A stretch of 64,000 bases of DNA from the NCBI GenBank assembly GCA_963842945.1, contig CAWJIM010000016.1, positions 64,001 to 128,000 of the forward strand, given 5' to 3'. The notes under the pieces were generated by a model. It did not search any database, had not been told where the DNA came from, and saw only the letters and a program-made list of their open reading frames with translations. A program made the position numbers and the translations under genes. This document shows, piece by piece, positions 378-14,338 of the stretch (position 1 is its first letter; the number at the start of each line of letters is the position of its first letter). Origin of the DNA: an uncultured Gemmatimonadales bacterium. Its GTDB lineage: Bacteria; Gemmatimonadota; Gemmatimonadetes; Gemmatimonadales; GWC2-71-9.

Positions 378-492
378 CTACGGGACGTATTGGAGGTTGT
401 TGGGCACCCCACGGCAACAGCCGATCACTTCGATCCTCGGCTTGCCGTTCAGAAAGACTCGACTTGCGGCTGCGACTTGAGGATCGGGACAT
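378..492 (-). pseudogene. Kelch-lipoprotein gene remnant with a large internal deletion
   Basis: GGAGG + ATG (492) joined almost directly, out of frame, to ...SRVFLNGKPRIEVIGCCRGVPNNLQYVP*, the same C-terminus as the two intact Kelch genes. Confidence 0.75.
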
Positions 493-583: not shown

Positions 584-627
584 AGAATGCATCAGGAGGG
601 CGGAAACCCGTGTGAACCCGGTGTGAA
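584..627 (-). promoter_or_regulatory. Triple direct-repeat promoter, copy 1
   Basis: Minus strand TTCAC-accggg-TTCAC-acgggt-TTCCG-N11-CATTCT. Confidence 0.65.
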
Positions 628-641
628 GGATTCCATACAAA

Positions 642-670
642 AGGGCTCACCGGTGATCCCGGTGAGCCCT
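642..670 (-). terminator. Intrinsic terminator of the Kelch gene
   Basis: Perfect 12-bp stem agggctcaccgg/ccggtgagccct followed by TTT on the minus strand. Confidence 0.75.
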
Positions 671-688
671 CGAGCGATCGTCGGGACG

Positions 689-1774
689 CTATGGGATGTA
701 CTGAAGGTTGTTGCCTGGTGGGCTCCCGCCCACCACCTCGATCCGGGGCTGGCCGTCGAGGAAGACCCGGATTGCCGCGATGCCGTAGCGTGCGGTCGTC
801 ATTGGTGCGGCGGTGGTCCAAGTATTGGTGATCGGGTGATACACCCGGGTGCTTCGGACCGGCTGCCACCCGTTGGCGCCGGGTTGCCGGCCACCCGTCA
901 GGTACAGCATGGCGCCCTGGACCGTTGCGGCTGCATCCACGCGCACCTGGCCTCCGGTGACCTTCATGGTCCACTGGTTGGTAACCGGATCATACACTTC
1001 GATGGTCTTGCCGTCGGTCAGGTAGAGCTTGTCGTAGAGCACCCCACCCATGTGACCCGCCTGGTATACACCTTTGGGACTCGGAAGCCGGGCCCACCGG
1101 TTGGTCACCGGGTTATAGCGGAAGAAGTTCGATATCCCTGGCCGGCCACCCTCCACAGACCCACACTCGTCATAGTAGAATTCTTCAGGCACCCTTTCAA
1201 AGCAGGTACTGACCACGTAGAGCTTGCCCTTGATCACGCCGGTCAGGCCAAGGGCGCCAGACTCCGGCATGTAGGCCTTCCTGGTCCAGATATTCGTGGC
1301 CGGATCGTACTGGAAGAGTCCCCCGACGGGATCTGCGGCCTGAGAATCTTCGTCCAGATAGTACCCGCCGGAGATGTAAATCTTCCCGTTGACCACCCCA
1401 GTCCCGTTCGTGCCATATAGAGCAGTGGGCAGCCTTGCCTTCTGACTCCAGGTGTTGGTGGCGACGTTGTACGCCTGCACCCAGTCCAGGCTCATATCGG
1501 GCACGGAGTACCCATTGGGACTCTGCCCGGACCCCCGACCACCGATGACATAAACGACGGCCTGGCCGGCCGGATTCGATACCGTTGCGATGGCAGGCCA
1601 CTGGACCTCGTGGGGGATGTCGCGCCGGGTGACCCAGGTATTGTGCGCGACAGCGAGCTCCGGACCGGTGACAGTTGGAGTCTTGGTTGGGGCGGTGGTC
1701 TCGTCGGAGCCGCAGGAGGCCAAGGCCAGCACACCAAGCCCGAGGACGGTGTACCCCAGTGGAAGGTGCCTCAT
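689..1774 (-). CDS. Kelch-repeat beta-propeller lipoprotein
   Basis: Lipobox LAS-C; repeated GKIYISGG, YDPATNxW and LYLTGG Kelch motifs; AGGAGG upstream of ATG. Confidence 0.9.
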   Translation of the reverse strand: MRHLPLGYTVLGLGVLALASCGSDETTAPTKTPTVTGPELAVAHNTWVTRRDIPHEVQWPAIATVSNPAGQAVVYVIGGRGSGQSPNGYSVPDMSLDWVQAYNVATNTWSQKARLPTALYGTNGTGVVNGKIYISGGYYLDEDSQAADPVGGLFQYDPATNIWTRKAYMPESGALGLTGVIKGKLYVVSTCFERVPEEFYYDECGSVEGGRPGISNFFRYNPVTNRWARLPSPKGVYQAGHMGGVLYDKLYLTDGKTIEVYDPVTNQWTMKVTGGQVRVDAAATVQGAMLYLTGGRQPGANGWQPVRSTRVYHPITNTWTTAAPMTTARYGIAAIRVFLDGQPRIEVVGGSPPGNNLQYIP

Positions 1775-1839
1775 ACATCCTCCTAAAATCCCAGCCGGGG
1801 TCAGGGTCAGAATGGCCCAGGGACCCAGCTGATGGGAGG

Positions 1840-1883
1840 AAATTGCATCCAGAGTGGCGAAAGGAGGGTGAACCCGTCGTGAA
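1840..1883 (-). promoter_or_regulatory. Triple direct-repeat promoter, copy 2
   Basis: Minus strand TTCAC-gacggg-TTCAC-cctcct-TTCGC-N11-CAATTT. Confidence 0.65.
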
Positions 1884-1897
1884 GAAACCCTCAGCAA

Positions 1898-3400
1898 TCA
1901 CGAAGCCGAGGTGCGAATGGGAACTCGTCCCAGCAGGCTGCCCCAGCTTCGGAGTTGGCTGGTGACCAGAAACAGCTCGTGTACCCGCCGTTGCCCGTTC
2001 CTGCCCCACTCCTGCCGAGCCTCAGGGAGTGCCAGCATCTCGTTGATGGCGCGCTCCAGCTCCTCCCGGTTGGAGGGATCGTCGATGAGCCGCCCGTCGA
2101 GCCCATCGCGGATCTGAGTTCGTGGCCCGACCGCCCGGGAGTTGCTGAGCACCGGAACTCGCTTCCACATGGCTTCGGCTATGGTGAGCCCGAAGCCTTC
2201 GCGCAGCGAGTTCTGCACGACGATCGTTGATGAGCGCTGCAGGGCATTGACCAGCAGCGCGTTCTGCTCCTTTGAGCGCATAGGTAAGGTGACGATGGCA
2301 ATGTCGTCCTGAACCGCTGGGTGCAGCGAGACGTATGCCCCTCGGAGCTCCTCCAGCACGTCCGTCGCTTCCGGATCGTCCTGGATGGCCTCCGCTTCCG
2401 GGCCGGCGAGCACCAGCCGCACTAAGTCCAGCCGGCGGCGGTGGACTGGATCAGGAGCGGTGTCGCCACCATAGATGGATCGCTTGAGAGAGGCGAACGC
2501 CTCCATCAAGGGGCGGAATCCCTTCAGGCGGTCCCAGCGGGAGACCTGCGTCACGATGGGCCGGGTAAGGAGACCGATGTCTTCCATGGCATTGGCTGGG
2601 GCGGAGCTTCCGTCCGGCAAGACACGGTGAGCGGGGTAAGCATAGGGCGGCTCCACCGTGGGTCCGGGACACACCACCAGTCCGCCGGTACAGAGCACCT
2701 GCACGGCACCGTTCAACGACAGCTCGCAATTCTTTTCCGAGAGCGGATCTATCCCGGGATGGATCACCGTGGATCTGCCGGCCAAGCGCTCCGGGATGTA
2801 CTCCGATGCCGAGAACACCGCGTGATCGTAGGCATCAAGATAGGGCGCCAGAAAGTCCCAGGCCGAGCGGGTCGCCGCGTTCTCCTCATCCAGCCCGATA
2901 TGGGAGCGCCAGATGGTCAGCACCGGGACGTGCTCACGCAGCATTCCGGCGAGCGGCAATGGTTGTGGGTCATGCACGATCAGGAGGTCACCGGGACGAA
3001 CCAGCGACTTGAGCTCCTCCGCGTTCTCCCGATTCACCTGCTCGAACAGCTCACGATCGGCCTTTTCCAGACCGGGATCACCGGCGCCGTGGATGAGGTT
3101 GTGAATCCGTTTGGTCAGCGGGAAGAAGGCGGGGTCCCGGGAGCCGATCACCACCCACTCGATGCGTACGCCGAGATCCCGTAACAGCGGGACCATGTTC
3201 ACCAGCATCTCGGCGACACCGCCACCGTGGGCGGTCGAGTTGACCATCCAGACCGTCCGTCCGCTCAGGCGGGGAAGCACCGCTGCGGCCTCACTCCGGA
3301 GGTCGTGCACTGCCTGGGCGAGGTGGGCGACGGCCTCGTACTCCGCCAGGGTTCGTTGCGTCTCCAGCTTAACGCGCTGGAGTAAGGATCGGGTCACCAT
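1898..3400 (-). CDS. treT: GT4 glycosyltransferase, trehalose synthase TreT-like
   Basis: NSTAHGGGVAEML, HDPQP, QVSRWDRLKG and EGFGLTIAEAMWK motifs. Confidence 0.85.
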   Translation of the reverse strand: MVTRSLLQRVKLETQRTLAEYEAVAHLAQAVHDLRSEAAAVLPRLSGRTVWMVNSTAHGGGVAEMLVNMVPLLRDLGVRIEWVVIGSRDPAFFPLTKRIHNLIHGAGDPGLEKADRELFEQVNRENAEELKSLVRPGDLLIVHDPQPLPLAGMLREHVPVLTIWRSHIGLDEENAATRSAWDFLAPYLDAYDHAVFSASEYIPERLAGRSTVIHPGIDPLSEKNCELSLNGAVQVLCTGGLVVCPGPTVEPPYAYPAHRVLPDGSSAPANAMEDIGLLTRPIVTQVSRWDRLKGFRPLMEAFASLKRSIYGGDTAPDPVHRRRLDLVRLVLAGPEAEAIQDDPEATDVLEELRGAYVSLHPAVQDDIAIVTLPMRSKEQNALLVNALQRSSTIVVQNSLREGFGLTIAEAMWKRVPVLSNSRAVGPRTQIRDGLDGRLIDDPSNREELERAINEMLALPEARQEWGRNGQRRVHELFLVTSQLRSWGSLLGRVPIRTSAS

Positions 3401-3424
3401 ACCAATCGACAGCTGCTATGAAGG

Positions 3425-5270
3425 TCAGGGAGGGGTCTTGGCTGGAAGGGCTGCCCGGAGTGCATTCAGTATCACCGCCACATCGATTCCCTCCTGAAGC
3501 AGCGCTCCAGCGACCGGCGGGATATAGCCTAGACTGGCCACGACCATCGCCGCCCCACTCAGACCGAGCCCTGTCCAGATGCTCTGCCGGGCAATGCTCA
3601 GGGTGCGCCGGCTGATGCGGATCGCCTCGCCCACCCGGGTGGGATCGTCAGCCAGGATCACTGCGTCAGCGGCCTCGGCGCTGATGCCCCCGCCGCTCGA
3701 AGCCAGGGCAATTCCGACCGTGGCGGTGCTGAGCGCCGGGGCATCGTTGGTGCCGTCGCCCACCATGAGGACCGGCTCCCCTTCCTTCATCAGTCCCTGC
3801 ACCCAGGCGACCTTTTCTGCCGGGAGGAGATCACCGTGAGCCTCCTCAATCCCAACCGCCTGGGCTACAGCTGCGGCATTGGCCTGGTCATCGCCAGAGA
3901 GCAGGAGGATCCGCCGGACGCCCAGCCGCCGGAGCTGAGAAATGAATTCAGCCAGCTCGGGGCGGAGCCGGTCGGCATACTCGATCACTCCGGCGCCACG
4001 GCCGTCCACCGCCACATACGCCCTCAGCTCGACGCCGGGCGTCTGCGCCAGTAGCTCGCGCAGTGGCGCTTCAGCCGCCGGATGACGGTGCACCAGGAAG
4101 GACCAGCCACCCACAGTCACGGCGCGCCCTTCGACTGCGCCGGTCACCCCTTGGCCGGAAGCTTCGGTGACGTTCCCCGCCTCGGGCAGCTTAATTCCGC
4201 GAGCTGACGCTTCTTGGACGACGGTCCGCGCGAGCAGGTGGCCGGAGCCCTGCTCGATACTGCCGGCCAGCCGCAGCACGTCTTCCTCGGTGAAGGGCGG
4301 GACGGCAAGCACCCGGTCCACTCGGGGCCGGCCGATGGTGAGCGTGCCAGTCTTGTCGAACACAGCCACCACGATCCGGCCCAGCTGCTCCAGGGCGGTG
4401 CCGTGACGGAAGATGATCCCCCGGCGAGCCGCCCGGTTGATGCCGCCAACGATCGCGACCGGGGTCGCCAGGATGAGAGGACAAGGAGTCGCGACTACCA
4501 GCACCGCGAGCACCCGCGTCGGATCGCGAGAGAGAAGGTATGCCGCGGCACAAACCACCAGGGTCAGCGGCGTGAACCAGACTGCGTACCGGTCGGCCAA
4601 CCGCTGGAGCGGTGCCTTGCTCTCCTGAGCGGTGCGAACCAGCTCCACGATCCTGGCGTACTGGCTTTGGCTCGCCGGAGCCGTGACCCGTACCGTGAGG
4701 GGCCCCTCGAGGTTGAGGCTGCCACTCATCAGCCCGACATCGGGATGGGCGCTCACCGGCACCGGCTCCCCCGTCATCCGGGAGGCGTCCACGTGAGACC
4801 GCCCTTCGATGACGACCGAGTCGCAGGCCAGCAGCTCCCCGGGCCGGAGCAGGATAACATCTCCCACCGCGACGGTCTCGGCGGCGACATCTGTGACCTC
4901 ACCGGCGACCAGACGGTGAGCGATCCGGGGCGCTGCGGCCTCCAGCTCCCGGACCGCCTCCGATGCCCGGCCCTGAGCATAGCGCTCCAACGCCTCCCCA
5001 CCGGTCTGCATCAGGACTACGATAAGGCCGGCGAGCGGCTCCCTCAGAAGGAGTGAGGTGACAATGGCCAGCATCGCCACCAGATCGGCGGCAAAGCGGC
5101 CCGAGGCGATGCCCCGAAGCGTCTGCCACACCACTGGAATACCGGTGAGAACCAATCCAGCATTCCACACCGCGGCGGCCACATTGCTCCGCGCCGCGAG
5201 ATGGAGCAGCAACCCGCTGATGATGCAGAGAAGAGCGCCGGCCGGAAGGAGGTAGGTGCGGCCGACCTGA
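3425..5270 (-). CDS. Heavy-metal P1B-type ATPase with P1B-5 signature; start uncertain
   Basis: TGEP, VVATPCP, DKTGT, GDGTND and QEGID; no N-terminal metal-binding domain. Confidence 0.9.
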
Positions 5271-5277
5271 CCCGGAG

Positions 5278-5976
5278 CTAGAGCGCGGGCGAGATCTCCG
5301 CCTCGCCGCCCCGGCGCAGGCTGAATCCCACTCCCCGCACCGTGCTCAGGAGCCGCTCCCCCGCGGCCTCGCTCAGTTTCCGGCGCAGATTCCCCACGTG
5401 GACGTCCACCACGTTGCTCTCCGGATCGAAGTGCATGTCCCATACCTTCTCCAGGAGCGTGGTCCGCCTGACTACCTCTTCCGGATGAAGCATGAAGTAC
5501 TCGAGTAGCTGGAACTCCTTCGCTGTCAGATCCAGCCTCTTGTCATTGACCGTAGCAATGTGGCGCAACCGGTCCAGCGCAATCGGCGGATACCGCAGCA
5601 GGTCCAGTCGCTCGGCCCCGCCCCGGCGATGGAGGGCCCGGATCCGGGCCAGCAGTTCGTCGAACTGGAATGGCTTGGCCAGATAGTCGTCGGCACCAGC
5701 GTCGAGACCGCGGACGACGTCCTCTTTTGCGTCGCGCGAGGTCAGCATCAGGATCGGTGTCTTCCGGCCTTCCCGCCGGAGCTCGGTGGCCACCTGAAAC
5801 CCGTTCTTTTTGGGAAGCACGATGTCCAACAGGATCATGTCATAGTCGTAGACGTGGGCCAGCATCGTCGCCTCCTCCCCGTCAGGGGCGACGTCTACGA
5901 CATACCCCTCTTCCCTGAGGCCCTGCTCGATGAATCCGGCGACTTTGCGGTCGTCTTCCACAACGAGGATCTTCAT
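5278..5976 (-). CDS. OmpR/PhoB-family response regulator (CusR/CopR-like), orphan
   Basis: MKILVVEDD...LLD...GADDYLAKPF receiver; wHTH with SNVVDVHVGNLRRK and TVRGVGF. Confidence 0.95.
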   Translation of the reverse strand: MKILVVEDDRKVAGFIEQGLREEGYVVDVAPDGEEATMLAHVYDYDMILLDIVLPKKNGFQVATELRREGRKTPILMLTSRDAKEDVVRGLDAGADDYLAKPFQFDELLARIRALHRRGGAERLDLLRYPPIALDRLRHIATVNDKRLDLTAKEFQLLEYFMLHPEEVVRRTTLLEKVWDMHFDPESNVVDVHVGNLRRKLSEAAGERLLSTVRGVGFSLRRGGEAEISPAL

Positions 5977-5982
5977 GTATGA

Positions 5983-6025
5983 AATCTGGGTGGTCGTGGT
6001 TAAGGCTGGCGGAAGGCCGCCTGAA
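5983..6025 (-). promoter_or_regulatory. Triple direct-repeat promoter of the regulator gene, probably leaderless, copy 3
   Basis: Minus strand TTCAG-gcggcc-TTCCG-ccagcc-TTAAC-N10-CAGATT-N6-ATG; no SD. Confidence 0.5.
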
Positions 6026-6133
6026 GCTTTCTTCACGTTCGACAGTGGCCTGGAGCTCGCCCGACTGGGCGCCGGCGCGAACTCATAGGTCAATACTACC
6101 GCAGAGGTTCCGACCTCGAAACCCTCAGAAAGC

Positions 6134-6177
6134 TTCGCCCCGACTTCATCCTCCCTTCATAACGCTCGAGCTAAGTT
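6134..6177 (+). promoter_or_regulatory. Triple direct-repeat promoter, copy 4
   Basis: TTCGC-cccgac-TTCAT-cctccc-TTCAT-N11-TAAGTT. Confidence 0.65.
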
Positions 6178-6233
6178 TGGGCCAGGCGAGAGATCCTGAA
6201 CCGATAGTGGCGGCAGTCGAAGGAGGACACATT

Positions 6234-6443
6234 ATGACTCGAAATATCGGCAACCTGGAACGGATCGCCCGATTGATCGTAGGCGTCCTGATCCTGGGTC
6301 TGTACGGCGCCCTCCCGTCGCCCTGGCGATACGTCACTCTGATTGGATTACTCCCTCTGGGCAGCGGCTTGACCGGCTTCTGCCCGCTATACGCCCAACT
6401 GGGCTGGAACCGCTGGCATCCGACCGGCAGGAGGAGCATATGA
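6234..6443 (+). CDS. DUF2892 (YgaP-like) small membrane protein
   Basis: MTRNIGNLERIARL...GLTGFCPLY; AGGAGG RBS. Confidence 0.85.
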   Translation: MTRNIGNLERIARLIVGVLILGLYGALPSPWRYVTLIGLLPLGSGLTGFCPLYAQLGWNRWHPTGRRSI

Positions 6444-7414
6444 TGCGCCAGATCCAATCCATTCTCGTGCCGCTCGACGGCTCCTCGCTGGCCGAGGAGG
6501 CTCTGCCCCTGGCCCAGGCCATAGCCGAGCGCTCCCGGGCCAAGCTCAAGCTGGTCCTGATCCATGAGCCCCACATCCTGATGGAGCCTGGCCCCGCCTA
6601 CACCAAGGTGGAGCTCGCGATGCAGAAGGCCGACCGGGATTACCTCAAGTCGGTGACTACCCGACTCCGCAGCGTGCTCGGCCGCTCGGTATCCTCGGCG
6701 GTGCTGCAGGGAATTCCGGTGGCACAGACGCTGGCCTCGTATGCCCGGGAGCTGGGTGTTGATCTGGTGGTGATGACTACGCATGGTCGGGGCGGGCTTC
6801 GGCGGGCCTGGCTGGGAAGCGTCACCGACCAGCTGATCCGATTCTCGGAGACCCCCATCCTGGTGGTTCGGCCCGGCGAAGCAGGAGTGGCCAAGCCCGC
6901 GACGGAGATAAAGGAGGTTCTGGTTGCTCTCGATGGGTCACCTCTGGCGGAGGCGGCGCTCGAGCCGGCTGTCACCCTGGCCAAATTGTGGGACGCCGAG
7001 ATCTCGCTGGTGCAGGTGGTTCGTCCGATCATTCTGACCGATGGTGCACCGCTTACCTTCCCTAGTGGCTATTCGGAACAGGTCACAATCTTCCGCCGCG
7101 AAGCCGCCCAGGACTACATCAGGGATCTGGCGGAGCGCCTGCGTGAATCGGGAATCAGAGCAAACGGAGTGGCCGTCATCGGCGCCGCTGTTCCCGAGAC
7201 ACTGATCGATATGGCAGCGCCCGAGCGGGTCAGTCTGATAGTGGCAGCCACCCACGGGCTGGGCGGTCTCAAGCGGATGGTACTGGGGAGTGTGGCTGAT
7301 AAGCTGGTACGCGGCGCAAACGTACCAACTCTAGTGGTCCGCCCTGCCGGCCGCAGGGCGCGCCGGAACTCGGAGGAGATGAATGTTCCGGTCAGTGCGG
7401 GCGCGTCCTTGTGA
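6440..7414 (+). CDS. Tandem-domain universal stress protein
   Basis: Two USP domains: ILVPLDGS...THGRGGLRRAWLGSVTD and VLVALDGS...THGLGG..LGSVAD. Confidence 0.95.
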   Translation: MMRQIQSILVPLDGSSLAEEALPLAQAIAERSRAKLKLVLIHEPHILMEPGPAYTKVELAMQKADRDYLKSVTTRLRSVLGRSVSSAVLQGIPVAQTLASYARELGVDLVVMTTHGRGGLRRAWLGSVTDQLIRFSETPILVVRPGEAGVAKPATEIKEVLVALDGSPLAEAALEPAVTLAKLWDAEISLVQVVRPIILTDGAPLTFPSGYSEQVTIFRREAAQDYIRDLAERLRESGIRANGVAVIGAAVPETLIDMAAPERVSLIVAATHGLGGLKRMVLGSVADKLVRGANVPTLVVRPAGRRARRNSEEMNVPVSAGASL

Positions 7415-7486
7415 TGTCGGAGCCGGTGTGAACCGGTCGTGACCGACCATCCATCTCGGTCAAAGCCAGCGGGCGATGAAGCGATC

Positions 7487-7530
7487 TTAATCTGAGCTTC
7501 ATGCCTCCTTCGCAATGCCGGTCTCATTTT
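7487..7530 (+). promoter_or_regulatory. Triple direct-repeat promoter, copy 5
   Basis: TTAAT-ctgagc-TTCAT-gcctcc-TTCGC-N11-CATTTT. Confidence 0.6.
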
Positions 7531-7574
7531 TGACCGGCATTGCCCCTGATCCGCCGAACCCGAGGAGGCACCCG

Positions 7575-8572
7575 ATGGTTCCGCAGAACCCCAGCGTCTG
7601 GGAGGTCACGCCCGATAACTTTCCCCATGCCGCAGCGATCGATACTCAGCTCCGCTTCCTTCTTCGCTACGCGATCCTGGCGCCTTCGCCCAGAAACTCG
7701 CAGCCCTGGACCTTCGCCATCCGCGACAACAAGGTCTTTCTGCTGGCCGACCATGGCCGGAGCCAGCCGGTACTCGATCCCGACCGGCGCGAGCTCTACA
7801 TCGGGCTGGGGTGCGCGCTGGAAAATCTCCTGGTGGCAGGCGAGCACTTCGGGCTCAGCCACGCGGTGAGCTACTTCCCGGACCGCTGGCATCCGGAACT
7901 GGCTGCAACCGTGTTGTTCGAGCCGGGCGGAACTCCCTCAGCGGTCCGGGTGGGCGCCACCCTAGAGACGATTCGGCGGCGGCACAACGACACGGCGCTG
8001 TACCATTCGATCCCGCTGCCGGAAGAGCTGTTGCGCCGGCTGACTGCCTGCTGCGACGAGCCCGATGTGCGGGTAGAATTGACCGAGGACAGTTTGTTGC
8101 ACGATTGGATTCAGGCGCTAACGGTGCAGTCCGATAGCGTGGACCTGGCTAACCCGGGCTTTCGGATGGAGCTGGAGTACTGGATGAGCCAGGGGATCTT
8201 CGGGCCGGACCGAAACGCTTCGGCAGAGGACAATCCGGCCACCATTCTTCAGCGGCAACGGGCGATTACCCTGGGTCAGCTCAGGGTGGAGAGCGCTCCG
8301 GTGCTGGGGCTGATTCGGGGGCGGGCGACAGCCATCTGGTCCATGTGCGCGCAGGACAGCTGTTCGAGCGCATCTGGCTCACGGCGACCGGCCTCGGCAT
8401 CAGTATCAACCCCATGAGTCAGACGCTGCGCCGGCCGGAGCTAAGGGCGGTCGTCTCCGAGCTGATGCCTGCGGTGGGCTGGATTCCTCAGCACCTGTTT
8501 CGGGTGGGATACTCCTCCGCGCCACCGAAGCTGCGAAGCCCTCGCAGAACGGTCGAGGACGTCATGCTCTGA
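7575..8572 (+). CDS. Acg-family FMN-binding nitroreductase-fold protein; frameshift ~8320
   Basis: LAPSPRNSQPW and GCALENL, continuing in another frame with AGQLFERIWLTAT...PQHLFRVGY. Confidence 0.85.
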
Positions 8573-8576
8573 CCAC

Positions 8577-8624
8577 AGTGCCCGAGGCGAGAGTCGAACT
8601 CGCACGAGGTTGCCCTCGGCGGAT
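8577..8624. repeat. att site: 48-bp copy of the tRNA-Leu 3' half
   Basis: agtgcccgaggcgagagtcgaactcgcacgaggttgccctcggcggat, identical to 11649-11696. Confidence 0.95.
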
Positions 8625-8702
8625 CCTCGCAGGCGAGTCGGATGGTCCTGGGGCTCGCCTACTGGAGATATAAAGAGGATCGACGCAAACGTGCTTAAGC
8701 GT

Positions 8703-9101
8703 TCAGACGCTCGCTGGTGCAGGTCTCGATTGCTTCTGCAAGACCCGCCCGACCGCCGCGCTGAGATCGTCGAGCAGGAAGGGCTTAGTAAGCACTGGAC
8801 GGTCAAGCTCTAGGTCGGAGCGAAAGGCTGACATAAAAATGACCTCCGGAGCGTTAGGTAATGCCGCCAGACGGTCGGCGAGTTGATAGCCATCGAGCTC
8901 GGGCATCAGTAGATCGCAGAGCACAAGGTGGACTTCTACGCCAGACTGCTCGAGTACCGTCAGTGCTTCTACGCCATTCCCTGCAGTCAGGACGCGATAT
9001 CCGGCCTGCTCAACCTTTCGCGCTATGACGCGACGAACACCTTCGTCATCGTCGACCACCAACACTGTGTGCGGGAGTAGCTCAGGGGCGGGGGCATTCA
9101 T
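8703..9101 (-). CDS. Single-domain response regulator (CheY-like receiver)
   Basis: VLVVDDD, CDLLMPELDG, MSA and LTKPF. Confidence 0.9.
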   Translation of the reverse strand: MNAPAPELLPHTVLVVDDDEGVRRVIARKVEQAGYRVLTAGNGVEALTVLEQSGVEVHLVLCDLLMPELDGYQLADRLAALPNAPEVIFMSAFRSDLELDRPVLTKPFLLDDLSAAVGRVLQKQSRPAPASV

Positions 9102-9281
9102 GAGACACCTTCTCTTGCTCGGGGGCGGCATAGGAATCAGCCGTATGGGGCCGACGGAGTGGCGAATCGCAGGAAGCGCAGGACGCACTGGAAGGGAGTC
9201 GCTGAATGAATCTACCCCGCACGCCGGTTGAGCACCAACGGAGCCCAGGAAGTGCCGTCAGCGCACCCCGGCCTGAGCTCG

Positions 9282-9520
9282 CTAAAACCGTTGGTGGAAT
9301 GTGATCTTCACCGTCTGTGGGCTGTTCGTCGCTCCGGTAGCCCACACCTTGATTTTGCCATAATAGGTGCCGCGAGGCAGGCCTGTGCCATCGACCCAAA
9401 CCTTCATGACAGAGGGCGCTGTCCCAATTCTCGGCGACCGCTTGATCCAGGTCGCACTCTTGGTGGATGTCCAGTTGAGGATCCCACCGCCGGTGTTGCT
9501 GATGGACAAGGAGCCTGACG
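9282..9520 (-). pseudogene. BACON/Ig-like domain fragment
   Basis: LSISNTGGGILNWT..W..GTYYGKIKVWATGATNSPQTVKITF; no credible start. Confidence 0.6.
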
Positions 9521-9629
9521 ACGGCCAGCAGAAGCCACGAACTTTAGTTCGACCATCACACCAGGCAGGGGTGGCGAGTTCGAAGCCTCTCCGACTGAGA
9601 GCGATAGTGCGGGCCGCCTCCGTCACCAG

Positions 9630-10014
9630 CGCAGTAGAGCGGCGGCTCGATAAGGTCATTCCCTATGTTTTCCACCGGAACGGAAAGCCGATTCACGGAT
9701 ACCTAGACGGCTGGCGGGCAGCCTGCAAACGGGCAGCGGTCGTGAAGCGGGGCGAGCTGGAGGCGGTTGTCCGTCCCCACCTGCTCAACCGGACCCCTCA
9801 CGATTTCCGGCGCACTGCAGCGCGGAACCTCATTCGCGCTGGCGTCCCTCAGCACGTGGTGATGAAGCTCTGCGGCTGGAAAACGGATGCGATGTTCCGC
9901 CGCTATGCCATCGTTGATGAGCGAGACCTGCGGGACGCCGTGGCCAAACTAGCTGGATTCTGGGCACCCGACATAGCGCACAGTGAACGCTTCTTCACAG
10001 AGACATCACGATGA
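9630..10014 (+). pseudogene. Tyrosine recombinase/integrase C-terminal fragment
   Basis: PHDFRRTAARNLIRAGV..VMKLCGWKTDAMFRRY (HxxR, W, catalytic Y); N-terminal domains absent. Confidence 0.9.
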
Positions 10015-10037
10015 CTTCTGAGCGTCGTTGGCATATT
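9994..10037 (+). promoter_or_regulatory. Triple direct-repeat promoter, copy 6
   Basis: TTCAC-agagac-ATCAC-gatgac-TTCTG-N11-CATATT. Confidence 0.6.
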
Positions 10038-10059: not shown

Positions 10060-11157
10060 ATGACATACCGGCCAGTGTTGCCCGTCGTCGTGCTCAGCGC
10101 GCTCTGGCTCGCCGCCTGCGGTAACGATACCCCTACAGCCCCTAGCCACCCAGCCCAGCCGGCCAGCGGCGGGGCCGAAATGGCGGTAACGAGTAACAGC
10201 TGGATCACCCGCGCCGCCCTGCCCGCTTCCTTCCGGGCTGAAATGGCCACCGCGACGGTGACGAACGCGGCGGGGCAGTCCGTCGTGTACTCTATCGGCG
10301 GTGTCGACGCCATTGGACATCCGCTCACCAACGTCGCGGCGTACAACGTGGCGACTAACACCTGGACCTCCCGACGGGCGTTGCCCAGACGGTTGGCCTC
10401 GACCAATGGCGCGGGAGTCATCAACGGCAAAATCTACGTGTCGGGAGGGTATTCCTCCCTTGACGACGCGCTCTCGTGGAGGCCATGGCTCTACATGTAT
10501 GATCCCGCCACGAATACCTGGACCCGGAAGCGTGACCTGCCAGCGGTGACGGTGTACGGCGTCCGCGAATACCCCGCCGGCGAGGGCGTGACCGGGGTCA
10601 TCGGGGGGAAACTCTACGTCGCCAGCCACGTTTTCGTTGATTATGGGGACCCATCCTCGGGTCTTGACAGGGGGTACGGTACACTGTTCCTCCGGTACAA
10701 TCCGCGGACAGACGAGTGGGTCAGACTCCCGGAACCGTTTGCAACAGAGGGAGAGGCCGTACGGCCCACCGGCGGTGGGGTCATTGATGGAAAGTTCTAT
10801 CTGATGGGCGCGACGACTGGAGACAGAAACGGTCGTCTCGCCGTGTATGATCCGGCCACGGACGAGTGGACCACAAGAACCCCGCTACGCCTGGGCCGGC
10901 CGTCGGCGGCATCGGCAGTACTCGGAGGCAAGCTCTACGTCATGGGCGGAAGCCGCTACAACGCTAAAACGGGGTACTCTGACCTCCTGGACGTTACCAT
11001 CGCGTATGATCCAGTGAAGGACACATGGACTCCCCTGGCCCCGCTGCCGAGCCCTCGGTACCGAGTATCGGCCACCAGGGTCTTCCTCAATGGCCGGCCG
11101 CGGATAGAGTTGGTAGGTTGGTTTGCGCCGGGGAACAACCTGCAGTATGTGCCGTGA
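10060..11157 (+). CDS. Kelch-repeat beta-propeller lipoprotein, paralog of 689-1774
   Basis: Lipobox LAA-C, Kelch repeats, C-terminus RVFLNGRPRIELVG..PGNNLQYVP; AGGAGG RBS. Confidence 0.9.
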   Translation: MTYRPVLPVVVLSALWLAACGNDTPTAPSHPAQPASGGAEMAVTSNSWITRAALPASFRAEMATATVTNAAGQSVVYSIGGVDAIGHPLTNVAAYNVATNTWTSRRALPRRLASTNGAGVINGKIYVSGGYSSLDDALSWRPWLYMYDPATNTWTRKRDLPAVTVYGVREYPAGEGVTGVIGGKLYVASHVFVDYGDPSSGLDRGYGTLFLRYNPRTDEWVRLPEPFATEGEAVRPTGGGVIDGKFYLMGATTGDRNGRLAVYDPATDEWTTRTPLRLGRPSAASAVLGGKLYVMGGSRYNAKTGYSDLLDVTIAYDPVKDTWTPLAPLPSPRYRVSATRVFLNGRPRIELVGWFAPGNNLQYVP

Positions 11158-11588: not shown

Positions 11589-11650
11589 TCAGCGGTGAAG
11601 GCCCTGCAGGTGGCTCGATGAAGCGTGACCTAAGTTGTTGCGGGGTAAAG

Positions 11651-11733
11651 TGCCCGAGGCGAGAGTCGAACTCGCACGAGGTTGCCCTCGGCGGATTTTG
11701 AGTCCGCTGCGTCTGCCATTCCGCCACTCGGGC
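11651..11733 (-). tRNA. tRNA-Leu(CAA)
   Basis: GCCCGAGTGGCGGAATGGCAGACGCAGCGGA-CTCAAAA-TCCGC...GTTCGACTC...CTCGGGCA; long variable arm; CCA not encoded. Confidence 0.97.
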
Positions 11734-11921
11734 CTGGCCCAATAATAACCAGTCCAGCCCTCCTTGCGGGTTCCCTCCGGGAGATAGCTTCAGTCATTAC
11801 CGCGCGAGAATAGCTCCGGTCTCCTAGTCGCTCTCCTCCGTCCGGAGCCTTTGTGGAACTCAGAGGCTACCCCGCCCTGCTCTACCCGCGCAACCCGAAC
11901 GATGACCTTCGGTCCGGCCTT

Positions 11922-12503
11922 CTACCCTTCCCTTTCATTTCTCAGCGCTAGCGGCGGATCCAGGATCTCCCGCCACACCACGGCATCCCGGAGCTGCTGC
12001 GGGGTGTAGCTGCGGGTGGCGGTGTGATCGGCCGGTGCGGGCTGAAGAACTTCCGCCGGCTTCCCTTTCCTCTGTCCGCTCCGCCCGGCGTCCCGCGCCT
12101 CCGCAGCCTGGATCCGCCCGGCCTCGATGCCGGCGGCCTCGTCGTCCCGGTCCACCACCTGGCGCTCCTCCCGCTGCACCTCCCCTTCCAGGCTCCGGAC
12201 CTCGGGCTCCCCCTCCAGCGACTCTGCCGGCTGCCGCTGCTCCCGTCGAGCAACGGGTCTGTCCGACGGCGACGCGGTCTGCGCCGCTTCCTCCAACGCC
12301 CGGCGCAGTTCTCCCAGCACCATTTGCAGCCGGAATCCCTCCTGCTGAGTGGGATCGGGCCGGGACGGCAGCGGCTTGGGGCCGGGATAGCTCGATGGTC
12401 CGGGCTGCCGAGGACGAGAGGACTTCCCTTTGGCTCTGGTGATCAGGGTCAGCAGGAACCAGAGTGCGCCGATGATCAGAAAGCCATTCAGCTCGCCGGT
12501 CAT
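11922..12503 (-). CDS. YqfB-like membrane-anchored protein
   Basis: N-terminal TM helix, C-terminal [18 protein letters not shown], directly after floA. Confidence 0.6.
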
Positions 12504-13504
12504 CCGCTACCCAGCGCTCCCGTCGTTCCGGCGTCGGTCTGGCCCGCGATTGCCTGACGCATGGTGGTGTCGGCCTGGACGTTCCGGTACCGCTGATAGT
12601 CCATCACGCCCAGGTTGCCGTTCCGGAACGCCTCAGCCATGGCGAGTGGGATCTGGGCCTCTGCCGCGATCACCTTCGAGCGCTGGTTTTGCGCCTCTGC
12701 CTTGAACTCCTGCTCCATCGCCACGGCGAGCGCTCGCCGCTCTTCCGCTTTCGCTTGCGCGATCCGTTTGTCAGCCTCGGCCTGATCGGTCTGCAGCTCG
12801 GCGCCGATGTTCTTGCCTACGTCCACGTCGGCGATGTCGATCGACAGGATCTCAAACGCGGTCCCGGCATCGAGTCCCTTGGCCAGCACGGTCTTGGAGA
12901 TGAGGTCGGGGTTCTCCAGTACCGCCTTGTGCGACGTGGCCGAGCCGATGGTGCTGACGATTCCCTCACCCACCCGGGCCAGAATCGTTTCCTCGCCAGC
13001 GCCGCCCACCAGCCGGTTCACATTCGCGCGAACCGTCACCCGCGCCAGCGCGAGGAGCTGGATTCCGTCCTTGGCCATCGCGGCAACTTTGGGCGTGGTG
13101 ATCACCTTGGGATTCACGCTTACCTGTACCGCCTCGAACACGTCGCGGCCGGCCAGGTCGATCGCGGTGGCCTGCTGGAAGGTGAGCGGGATCTGCGCCT
13201 TGTCGGCCGAGATGAGCGCGTTCACCACCCGCTGCACGTTGCCGCCCGACAAGAAGTGGATCTCGAGCTGGTCTATGGTCAGATCGAGTCCGGCCTTGCG
13301 CGCCGTGATCAAAGGATCCACGATGGCGGCTGGGTTCACCTTGCGGAAGCGCATGCCGAAGAGGGTGAGGAAGGAGACCCGCACCCCCGAGGCCGCCGCC
13401 CGGATCCAGAGGCCTATGGGGATGAACCGGAAGAAGATGACGGCAAAGATGAAAGCGATGAAGAACAGCGCGAGCACCAGGCCGAGGCTTAGGGAGTCGT
13501 CCAC
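12500..13504 (-). CDS. floA: Flotillin-like protein FloA (YqfA, UPF0365)
   Basis: [31 protein letters not shown] and [19 protein letters not shown]. Confidence 0.95.
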
Positions 13505-13513
13505 GGGTATGTC

Positions 13514-14338
13514 CTAGTAGAGAGTTGGTCGGGAGTCGCGAGACGCGGGTCGGGAGTCAGGAGACGGATGGTCGCAGAAACTCGTGTCCCGCGACTCGTG
13601 ACTCGTGACTGAGCTCCTGACCGACCCTTCCACGACATGCCGATACCCATCACTCCGCACCACCCGCACCCGGCTGCCCTGGGCGACGTACTCGCCTTCG
13701 GTGACCACGTCGATCCGCTCCTCTCCAACCCGGGCGGTCCCCGAGGGACGGAGGTCGGTGATGGCGGTGCCATCCTTGCCGACCAGCTCCGGCCGGGCCG
13801 GCGCGGTGATGAAGCCCGCGTCCCGATGCCCCGCGCCCTTCAGCAGCAGTCCGCTGAACCGTCCGCTGTTCGGCAGATGGCGCAGCCAGGCGTAGACTAC
13901 CGCGGCGGTGATGAAGAAGCTCGCGCCCAGCACAGCGAGCGCCTGGGCGACGTCGCCGCTGGTCGGGTGGCTGCCGACCAGGGCAAGAAGTACCGATGCG
14001 GTCACCGCCAGGATGCCGACGATCCCGGCAATCCCGAAGCCCGGAATGATGAACGCCTCGACCGCGAGCGCGATCAGCCCGAACCCCAGCAGCAGCACCT
14101 CCTGCCATCCGGCGAGGCCGAGCATGAAGCTGGACGCGAAGAACAAGCCAAGGGAGACCAGGCCGAGCAGCCCACCGAGGCCGAAGGCGCCGGCCTTGAT
14201 CTCGAAGATCAGGCCGAGAATGCCGACCGAGAGCAGCACCGGGGAGACCAGCGGGTGGGTCAGGAACCGGAGAAGCCCGTCGGCCCAGGCAGGGTCAGGC
14301 TGCATGAGAGCGAGCGTCAGCAGAACGAAACGGCGCAT
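13514..14338 (-). CDS. nfeD: NfeD family protein (membrane + OB domains, no protease domain)
   Basis: VEAFIIPGFGIAGI and TDLRPSGTA..RIDVVTEGEY; upstream of floA. Confidence 0.85.
   Translation of the reverse strand: MRRFVLLTLALMQPDPAWADGLLRFLTHPLVSPVLLSVGILGLIFEIKAGAFGLGGLLGLVSLGLFFASSFMLGLAGWQEVLLLGFGLIALAVEAFIIPGFGIAGIVGILAVTASVLLALVGSHPTSGDVAQALAVLGASFFITAAVVYAWLRHLPNSGRFSGLLLKGAGHRDAGFITAPARPELVGKDGTAITDLRPSGTARVGEERIDVVTEGEYVAQGSRVRVVRSDGYRHVVEGSVRSSVTSHESRDTSFCDHPSPDSRPASRDSRPTLY
13530..13612. repeat. Heptamer repeat cluster (GAGTCGN / GACTCGT)
   Basis: gggagtcgcgagacgcgggtcgggagtc...cgcgactcgtgactcgtgact. Confidence 0.7.

Follow-up and report, generated by a model that had tools for sequence, protein, structure and literature searches.

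A conserved direct-repeat promoter class linked to an OmpR-type regulator and a putative haem-GAF kinase in Gemmatimonadales

The first 10 kb of the DNA analysed here (the window: 64 kb, positions 64001-128000 of contig C16 of a Gemmatimonadales metagenome-assembled genome, or MAG) contain six promoters of a single architecture, in which three TTCAY-like pentamers at an 11-bp period precede a YAnnnT -10-like box, and one of which stands before the gene of an OmpR/PhoB-family response regulator. We assign a probability of about 0.7 to the reading that these promoters belong to a conserved regulon of approximately 35 promoters, in which a kinase bearing a putative haem-binding GAF domain would signal through the OmpR-type regulator to activator-dependent promoters. 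An earlier note on the same DNA had proposed that a promoter of this type, served by the OmpR-type regulator, unites Kelch-repeat genes with stress genes, and the proposal is supported by the architecture in related genomes, by sites at the regulator gene itself in 30 loci, by the co-occurrence of motif and regulatory system, and by sites kept at five of seven close Kelch orthologues.

Six promoters of one architecture

All six sites were confirmed on reading the window, together with their coordinates, their pentamers, the 11-bp period, the 11-nt spacers (10 nt at 5983-6025) and the YAnnnT boxes. The scores given here derive from a matrix built solely from 173 sites in other genomes, and mismatches are counted against the degenerate pattern TTCRY-N6-TTCRY-N6-TTCRY-N11-YAnnnT. 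On the minus strand, S1 (584-627) has pentamers at 623-627, 612-616 and 601-605 and the -10 box CATTCT at 584-589 (25.6 bits); S2 (1840-1883) has pentamers at 1879-1883, 1868-1872 and 1857-1861 and the box CAATTT at 1840-1845 (29.8 bits, 0 mismatches); and S6 (5983-6025), the regulator's own promoter, has pentamers at 6021-6025, 6010-6014 and 5999-6003, a 10-nt spacer and the box CAGATT at 5983-5988 (21.5 bits). On the plus strand, the pentamers of S3 (6134-6177) begin at 6134, 6145 and 6156 and are followed by TAAGTT at 6172-6177 (44.6 bits, 0 mismatches), making S3 the top-scoring site of the whole genome; those of S4 (7487-7530) begin at 7487, 7498 and 7509, with CATTTT at 7525-7530 (27.5 bits, 1 mismatch), and those of S5 (9994-10037) at 9994, 10005 and 10016, with CATATT at 10032-10037 (18.6 bits, 3 mismatches).

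Chance is excluded as the source of these six sites. With up to three mismatches allowed, the degenerate pattern has eight matches in the window against 0.67 expected from 100 shuffles (sd 0.74, largest 3), none of which reaches eight. Five of the eight are the sites with 11-nt spacers noted earlier, one is S2 shifted by one repeat, and two (7663 and 24661) are chance-like; S6 is missed by this fixed-spacing pattern because its spacer is 10 nt. A position weight matrix built from the six sites, a check that the earlier note had proposed, finds 13 positions in the genome at 20 bits or more, namely the six and seven new ones, compared with 0-1 in 10 column-permuted controls. The matrix from relatives only, against which the six window sites score 18.6-44.6 bits, finds 32 positions at 18 bits or more versus 0-1 in six permuted controls. 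With the matrix iterated and then rebuilt from the sites of other genomes, the total comes to 38 distinct sites of at least 14 bits. The linked set that the earlier note described is thus real, although in this genome it is some six times larger than the six sites listed there.

The genome (4.30 Mb in 24 contigs, 65% G+C, 86.9% complete with 6% contamination) holds 17 of the 38 sites within a single island of about 47 kb at 27.4-74.0 kb of contig C16, the right end of which is the first 10 kb of the window; the remainder of the window past this point has no further site of 14 bits or more. Other clusters lie on C21 (72-88 kb), C19 (740-742 kb), C24 (486-488 kb and 406 kb), C4, C14 and C1. A same-strand gene start is found no more than 300 nt away for 24 of the 38 sites, which is a lower bound given home-made gene calls that cover 79% of the genome and make next-gene distances rough. 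Owing to the same gene calls, k-mer enrichment in upstream regions was uninformative. In this genome alone the spacing of 6 between TTCAY words does not stand out cleanly from the coding background (32 versus 8-57), the peak being clear only in the regulator-centred loci of relatives.

Simple duplication, which the earlier note had dismissed, does not account for the set, in that the same architecture stands, with diverged spacers, before non-homologous genes in more than 100 loci of other genomes. Together with the shuffle and permuted-matrix controls, this refutes chance or the local copying of one promoter as the origin of the set as a whole, a reading to which we concede next to nothing. 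The dismissal does not extend to every pair, however, as S1 and S2 are alike both in their spacers and in the downstream Kelch sequence and are probably paralogues. The Kelch gene previously placed behind S1 is likewise only partly there: Kelch sequence is present, but as a 38-codon remnant at 378-492 (-) rather than as an intact gene. This remnant comprises the C-terminal end only, its DNA being 69-71% identical to that of three Kelch paralogues at their 3' ends, and no Pfam family was found in it. Near-identical G+C-rich, terminator-like hairpins (GGGCTCACCGG...CCGGTGAGCCC) lie at 640-670 and at about 340-365 of the window, 3' of the Kelch gene behind S2 and of the remnant respectively, and the pair is consistent with a partial duplication of S2 and its Kelch gene as the source of S1 and the remnant.

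Conservation of the architecture in related loci

Relatives, all Gemmatimonadales MAGs, were sampled as 80 loci (1.08 Mb) out of 532 confirmed relatives, with regulator orthologues of 79-94% identity. These loci contain 185 matrix matches of at least 18 bits against 0-3 in eight permuted controls, and the matches collapse to 173 distinct sites. A matrix-free count displays the rigidity of the architecture directly. In the 80 loci, the count of TTCAY-Nk-TTCAY is 103 at k=6 and 51 at k=17, the latter peak representing repeats 1 and 3, against 0-14 for any other k from 0 to 20. For TTCAY-N6-TTCAY, a YAnnnT box follows at exactly 11 nt in 71 cases, compared with 0-3 for every other distance between 5 and 17 nt. 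No such peak was obtained with two control words.

The logo of 172 related sites, with the -10 hexamer set at -12 to -7, reveals TTCA at -50, -39 and -28, TAnnnT at -12 to -7 and an enrichment of A at +1. The canonical -35 place bears no TTGACA, and positions -35 to -30 carry 0.07-0.56 bits. The sites accordingly combine two hallmarks of a class II promoter of the pho-box type, that is, 11-bp direct repeats at a fixed distance from the -10 box and the lack of a -35 consensus. A regulator bound from -50 to -24 would overlap the region occupied by RNA polymerase and might repress rather than activate, a reading that we regard as very improbable: a repressor has no need of a fixed distance, and here the repeats are phased to the -10 box to the base with no -35 consensus present. 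Such rigid phasing without a -35 element is typical of promoters at which an activator contacts region 4 of the sigma factor, as at pho boxes.

An inverted half-site, TGAA at -60 to -57 (TGAAG-N4-CTTCA), precedes repeat 1 at roughly half of the 172 related sites and is weakly conserved; in the window it is found upstream of S4 (approximately 7477-7480), S5 (9984-9987) and S6 (6032-6035). A fourth protomer facing the other way could account for it, as could an A-rich, UP-like element. The fifth base of the pentamer alternates between C and T at every repeat of the logo, and that base taken alone cannot assign the TTCAC (Kelch) and TTCAT (stress) variants to different regulators, an assignment that the earlier note had considered.

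A second family of repeats was encountered in this genome, TTCACG-N5-TTCACG-N9-TAnnnT, which has two repeats and a -10 box 15 nt past the start of the second (C3:51570, C3:51807, C3:65137, C19:9873, C21:57709, C21:109600 and C21:285504; loci L151-L156). It may be the site of another OmpR-type regulator. It has no Rfam match, and no Pfam family was found for the nine small open reading frames downstream (68-120 aa).

Linkage of the motif to the regulator gene

The motif is tied to the regulator gene in both position and occurrence. Thirty related loci have a site whose end is 0-3 nt short of the regulator's start codon, with the -10 box 6-8 nt from that codon, and in the related locus L050 the 58 nt that separate the stop codon of the kinase from the start of the regulator consist of just this promoter. 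S6 is that promoter in the window, with a spacer 1 nt shorter. From the distance between box and start codon, the regulator mRNA is predicted to be leaderless, and the position of the start codon lends independent support to YAnnnT as the true -10 element. Elsewhere on C16, the gene of a CheB-like methylesterase starts 1 nt past the end of a 32-bit site (C16:53951-54006; L002 8951-9006) and likewise appears to be leaderless.

Among 41 genomes of the genus, most of which contain the regulator, the exact pattern TTCAY-N6-TTCAY-N11-YAnnnT has 124 matches, compared with one for the backwards pattern. At least one exact match occurs in 27 of 30 genomes that possess the kinase/regulator system and in one of 10 that do not. 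Of the 30, 28 have a regulator match of E 1e-90 or better and two (G015 and G047) have both genes in pieces; absence of the system was checked at looser thresholds for G008, G017 and G023 and by another search for G005, G014 and G022. The counts include an unpublished genome (G003, regulator present, two matches), without which the former fraction becomes 26 of 29 and on which no conclusion depends by itself.

These observations bear upon the possibility that the motif is real and yet bound by another protein, be it one of the four remaining OmpR-type regulators or a winged-helix protein unrelated to them, the window regulator being a mere member of the regulon. TCAC-like half-sites are common in the OmpR family, the genome does encode four further full OmpR-type regulators, and the sole system-free genome with a match (G017, one match) would be accommodated. 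Against this stand the co-occurrence just described, a site density around the regulator gene of about 13 times the genome average, the retention of a site at the regulator's own leaderless start in 30 loci, and the low identity (45% or less) of the remaining regulators, and we judge such a substitute binder quite unlikely. Loci of other OmpR paralogues (L034-L040) have no sites, except for one 25.4-bit match in L035.

The regulator and its putative haem-GAF kinase

The window regulator (5278-5976, -) pairs a receiver domain (PF00072, E 5.5e-31) with a winged-helix Trans_reg_C domain (PF00486, E 3.8e-26), the composition of the OmpR/PhoB family, and starts 6 nt past the -10 box of S6. It has 59 relatives of solved structure at E 1e-20 or better, the nearest of which is PrrA (E 5.9e-48). 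In an alignment of the two copies present in the genome, the motifs VVEDD, ILLD, LMLTS and AKPF are conserved, and these we take to supply the acidic pair, the Asp, the Thr/Ser and the Lys of the phospho-acceptor site. Six full OmpR-type regulators were found in the genome, two of which are this pair; the others share no more than 45% identity.

The second copy resides on contig C24 and is 93% identical to the window copy (212 of 229 residues). It adjoins a DosT/DosS-like, putative haem-GAF kinase, and the description of the regulator as an orphan is not strictly correct. The kinase, encoded directly 5' of the C24 regulator copy, has 417 residues with one GAF domain (19-159), a HisKA domain (PF00512) and HATPase_c. 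Its GAF domain is homologous to the haem-binding GAF-A of DosT (2VZW; E 1.6e-43 and 3.9e-42) and of DevS/DosS (E ~1e-33 to 1e-36). The review PMC4082495 names His149 of DosS and His147 of DosT as the proximal haem ligand, and Tyr171 and Tyr169 as the distal, ligand-discriminating residue. The kinase presents His107 (HHPPM) and Tyr129 (FGNLYLTEK), 22 residues apart as in DosT, in alignment with the haem His and the distal Tyr. NCBIfam gave no specific name above cut-off for either kinase or regulator, and the 120 closest kinase homologues bear generic names only.

The C24 pair is itself flanked by sites, located before a divergent tandem universal stress protein (USP) gene, before the regulator (17.7 bits) and before a multicopper oxidase. 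The usual order in relatives is a USP gene reading away from a site, followed by the kinase, a site, the regulator and an ATPase, and the window copy therefore looks like such a unit without its kinase. A kinase remnant was sought upstream of S6, where only a 17-nt match (16/17, E 0.007) to the junction of kinase stop and promoter in L050 was obtained; this is too short for a claim that a kinase was deleted, and the candidate was rejected.

Two regulator copies raise the possibility of two sub-regulons, served by different factors or oligomeric states. Kelch and nosZ sites have strong repeats 1 and 2, mostly TTCAC (TTCAC-N6-TTCAC), with a weak third repeat, whereas USP and Acg sites have strong repeats 2 and 3, mostly TTCAT, the USP sites reading TTCg-N6-TTCAT-N6-TTCAy. 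All classes nonetheless share one period and one distance to the -10 box, either C or T may stand fifth in any of the repeats, and most relatives possess both classes with a single copy. The two copies moreover differ at only 17 of 229 aligned residues and are identical in ESNVVDVHVGNLRRKL of the DNA-binding domain. A division of this kind is, in our estimation, unlikely.

Gene content of the regulon

In the window, S3 to S6 precede stress genes and the regulator operon as well as a Kelch lipoprotein, and the other sites of this genome extend the set considerably. Their genes encode a phosphoenolpyruvate (PEP) synthase/PPDK-type enzyme, two CBS-pair proteins, a Sec-type clade II NosZ (split by a frame change), a third Kelch lipoprotein and Kelch fragments, DUF4389, a metallophosphoesterase, the CheB-like protein, a receiver/kinase operon, a single-domain USP, a tandem USP, HSP20, a TonB-C protein, YceI, a two-domain multicopper oxidase, Acg fragments and aldehyde dehydrogenases.

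The genes downstream of the 173 related sites, once clustered, are dominated by USPs (62 sites in 51 loci) and by the regulator itself (30 sites). They are followed by a protein of 147-167 residues and of unknown function (8 sites), multicopper oxidase (6), CBS proteins (5 + 2), a second unknown protein of 141-161 residues (5), DUF2934 (4), NosZ, PAS-GGDEF(-EAL) and BON proteins (3 each), and Acg and HSP20 (2 each). Single cases include PEP synthase, trehalose-phosphate phosphatase, cytochrome c, cytochrome oxidase subunit I, a PQQ dehydrogenase, PRPP synthase, phospholipase D, MgtC/DUF4010 and a TonB-dependent receptor.

In none of the 80 related loci is there a Kelch gene closer to the regulator than 10 kb. 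A direct search for Kelch orthologues found a same-strand upstream site of 19.7-29.8 bits in five of the seven closest loci (47-62% identity; G047, G020, G011, G056 and G010), and no upstream site of 16 bits or more in 22 loci with more distant Kelch paralogues. Membership of the regulon is therefore conserved for one Kelch subfamily. The same is seen for nosZ, of which nine of 10 close orthologues (79-95% identity, this genome included) have a site 24-153 nt before the match, and in eight of nine relatives nosZ shares a contig with the regulator or kinase.

A proposed mechanism and its weight

In the mechanism proposed, the cytoplasmic kinase, through a GAF domain homologous to the haem-binding GAF-A of DosT/DosS, would phosphorylate the OmpR/PhoB-family regulator, present as its two 93% identical copies. 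The phosphorylated regulator would bind head-to-tail to three TTCAY half-sites starting at -50, -39 and -28, and these half-sites, which line one helix face and span about -51 to -24, would stand in for the -35 element in the manner of a class-II-type promoter, leaving the housekeeping sigma factor to read the TAnnnT -10 box. Positive autoregulation would follow from activation of the regulator's own leaderless gene. The signal would be low oxygen, NO, CO or redox state; the parallel between this gene set and the DosR regulon suggests as much, and the gene content, nosZ included, points to a dormancy-like response of the oxygen/NO type. That a DosT/DosS-like sensor wired to an OmpR-type regulator is the master switch of a dormancy-like programme for low oxygen or NO, embracing clade II nosZ and secreted Kelch lipoproteins, is a broader claim, for and against which we see about equal odds.

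Several observations weigh against this reading. The matrices were seeded from the six sites of the earlier note, the matrix-free spacing count and the exact-pattern searches being exempt, and the related genomes, of 58-99% completeness, are not independent samples. The exact pattern is absent from three of the 30 genomes that possess the system, and at regulator orthologues of 64-76% identity (L030-L032) the -10 box is present and the repeats were not found. Within the window itself, S5 is the weakest of the six sites at 18.6 bits, the middle half-site of S6 is weak and S1 drives a remnant only. The weakly conserved inverted TGAA is a misfit in a simple head-to-tail model. Finally, the kinase is on another contig than the window regulator, and in a MAG with 6% contamination the two regulator copies could stem from two strains.

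Transcript data are limited to a metatranscriptome run (X1) covering 6% of sampled words, in which a few short contigs with 0-2 mismatches fall in the TreT, ATPase and USP genes; these are contigs, blind to starts, strand and level, and hence give no support for transcription starts or induction.

Genes and other features of the window

The genes behind S6 form one minus-strand operon of regulator, ATPase and TreT-like protein. The ATPase (3425-5443) is of the P1B heavy-metal P-type (TIGR01525, 510.6 bits, above cut-off), and its frame opens within the regulator gene, at ATG 5443 preceded by GGAGAAGG; the resulting overlap with the regulator 3' end (5278-5443, about 166 nt) is likewise present in the related locus L050. 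The last gene of the operon (1898-3400) encodes a TreT-like trehalose synthase/glycosyltransferase (TreT_GT1, E 1.2e-46); a further TreT family match lies under that family's cut-off. Behind S2, also on the minus strand, lies a Kelch-repeat beta-propeller gene (689-1774; Kelch_1, E 1.8e-29).

On the plus strand, S3 precedes a YgaP-like/DUF2892 membrane protein (6234-6443; PF11127, E 2.1e-17) and a tandem USP (6440-7414; Usp, E 3.4e-49, in two stretches). Directly past the USP stop codon, at 7425-7445 (-), stands GTCAC-N6-TTCAC, which resembles repeats 1-2 of the Kelch-type sites, is without a -10 box, scores below 14 bits and may be a decayed promoter. S4 precedes an Acg-family FMN oxidoreductase (7575-8581; NF047509, E 9e-43, profile positions 2-181 of 319), the gene of which is split over frames 2 and 1 (two tblastn pieces) with the frame change between 8195 and 8342. 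Genes in two frames or two pieces are numerous, among them this Acg gene, NosZ, two P-type ATPases, an ABC ATPase and a ROK kinase (8195-8342 of the window, C16:43741-43745, and 6920-9422 and 11626-13566 of locus L001), and this abundance suggests indel errors of assembly rather than true pseudogenes. Behind S5 lies a Kelch-repeat lipoprotein gene (10060-11157; Kelch_1, E 2.2e-32), with an L-A-A-C lipobox read from the sequence. A stand-alone receiver-domain protein (8703-9101, -) is encoded between the Acg gene and the C-terminal fragment of a phage-type integrase (9385-10014, +), which ends within S5.

Comparison with known systems

The Gemmatimonadales are common in soils and have hardly been studied genetically. 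A promoter code legible in the sequence itself, combined with a probable sensor, yields testable predictions for dozens of genes per genome in hundreds of MAGs. The link to nosZ, kept in nine of 10 close orthologues, bears on the timing of N2O consumption by this order, NosZ being the enzyme that destroys the greenhouse gas nitrous oxide; if the proposed pathway is true, N2O consumption would be under the direct control of a haem sensor through that code. The interest of the system thus lies in a rewired pairing of sensor and output, in a regulon code from an uncultured and abundant soil order, and in nosZ. No description of it was found in the open-access literature, subscription journals lying outside the search; PMC11537054 concerns PdtaS, a different system. 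In Gemmatimonas phototrophica, 10% O2 induces cbb3 oxidase, hemN and a universal stress protein, according to PMC11406998.

PrrA from Mycobacterium tuberculosis and DrrD from Thermotoga, the nearest solved structures, resemble the window regulator over their full length (E 5.9e-48 and 2e-47), but the likeness is at the general family level, and no common kinase type or known DNA motif was found with either. The output side resembles PhoB and the pho box of Escherichia coli and PhoP and the PHO boxes of Streptomyces, in which 11-bp direct repeats bound by an activator of the OmpR/PhoB family likewise overlap the -35 element and take over its role, their distance from the -10 box being fixed; the Streptomyces units, GTTCACC, recur every 11 nt and have a core like the half-site described here. 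Unlike those boxes, the present sites have three units reaching -24, 11 nt from the -10 box, and about half of them have the additional inverted TGAA at -60. The sensor is also of another type than in the Pho systems, and there are no phosphate genes in the regulon.

The input side and the gene content recall instead the DosS/DosT-DosR (DevSR) system of Mycobacterium. The sensor GAF shares homology with haem GAF-A, including an aligned proximal His and distal Tyr, and the regulons have in common USPs, an oxidoreductase of the Acg/Rv3131 family, HSP20/alpha-crystallin, a CBS protein, a P-type ATPase and trehalose enzymes, the individual Rv genes presumably belonging to the families named. DosS and DosT contain two GAF domains in tandem and a HisKA_3-type domain, and their NarL-type partner DosR recognizes a palindromic site. 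The mycobacterial regulon numbers approximately 48 genes, including acr/hspX, ctpF and Rv2032 (PMC4082495, Table 1). The Gemmatimonadales system departs from this plan in several respects: the kinase has one GAF domain and HisKA in place of tandem GAFs, HisKA_3 and a NarL partner; the output regulator is an OmpR/PhoB winged helix and not of the NarL/LuxR type; the DNA site consists of direct repeats at 11 bp rather than a palindrome; the ATPase is of the P1B heavy-metal type and not CtpF-like; nosZ and Kelch lipoproteins are added; and the host belongs to another phylum. Because of its single GAF, HisKA core, OmpR-type partner and direct-repeat site, it is not a member of DosRST as usually defined. 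By analogy, then, the input and gene content resemble those of DosS/T-DosR and the output resembles the promoters of PhoB and the pho box, a parallel reached through another class of regulator that would exemplify the recombination of a sensor module with a new output and, if true, would mean that a dormancy regulon of the mycobacterial style arose or was rewired independently in another phylum.

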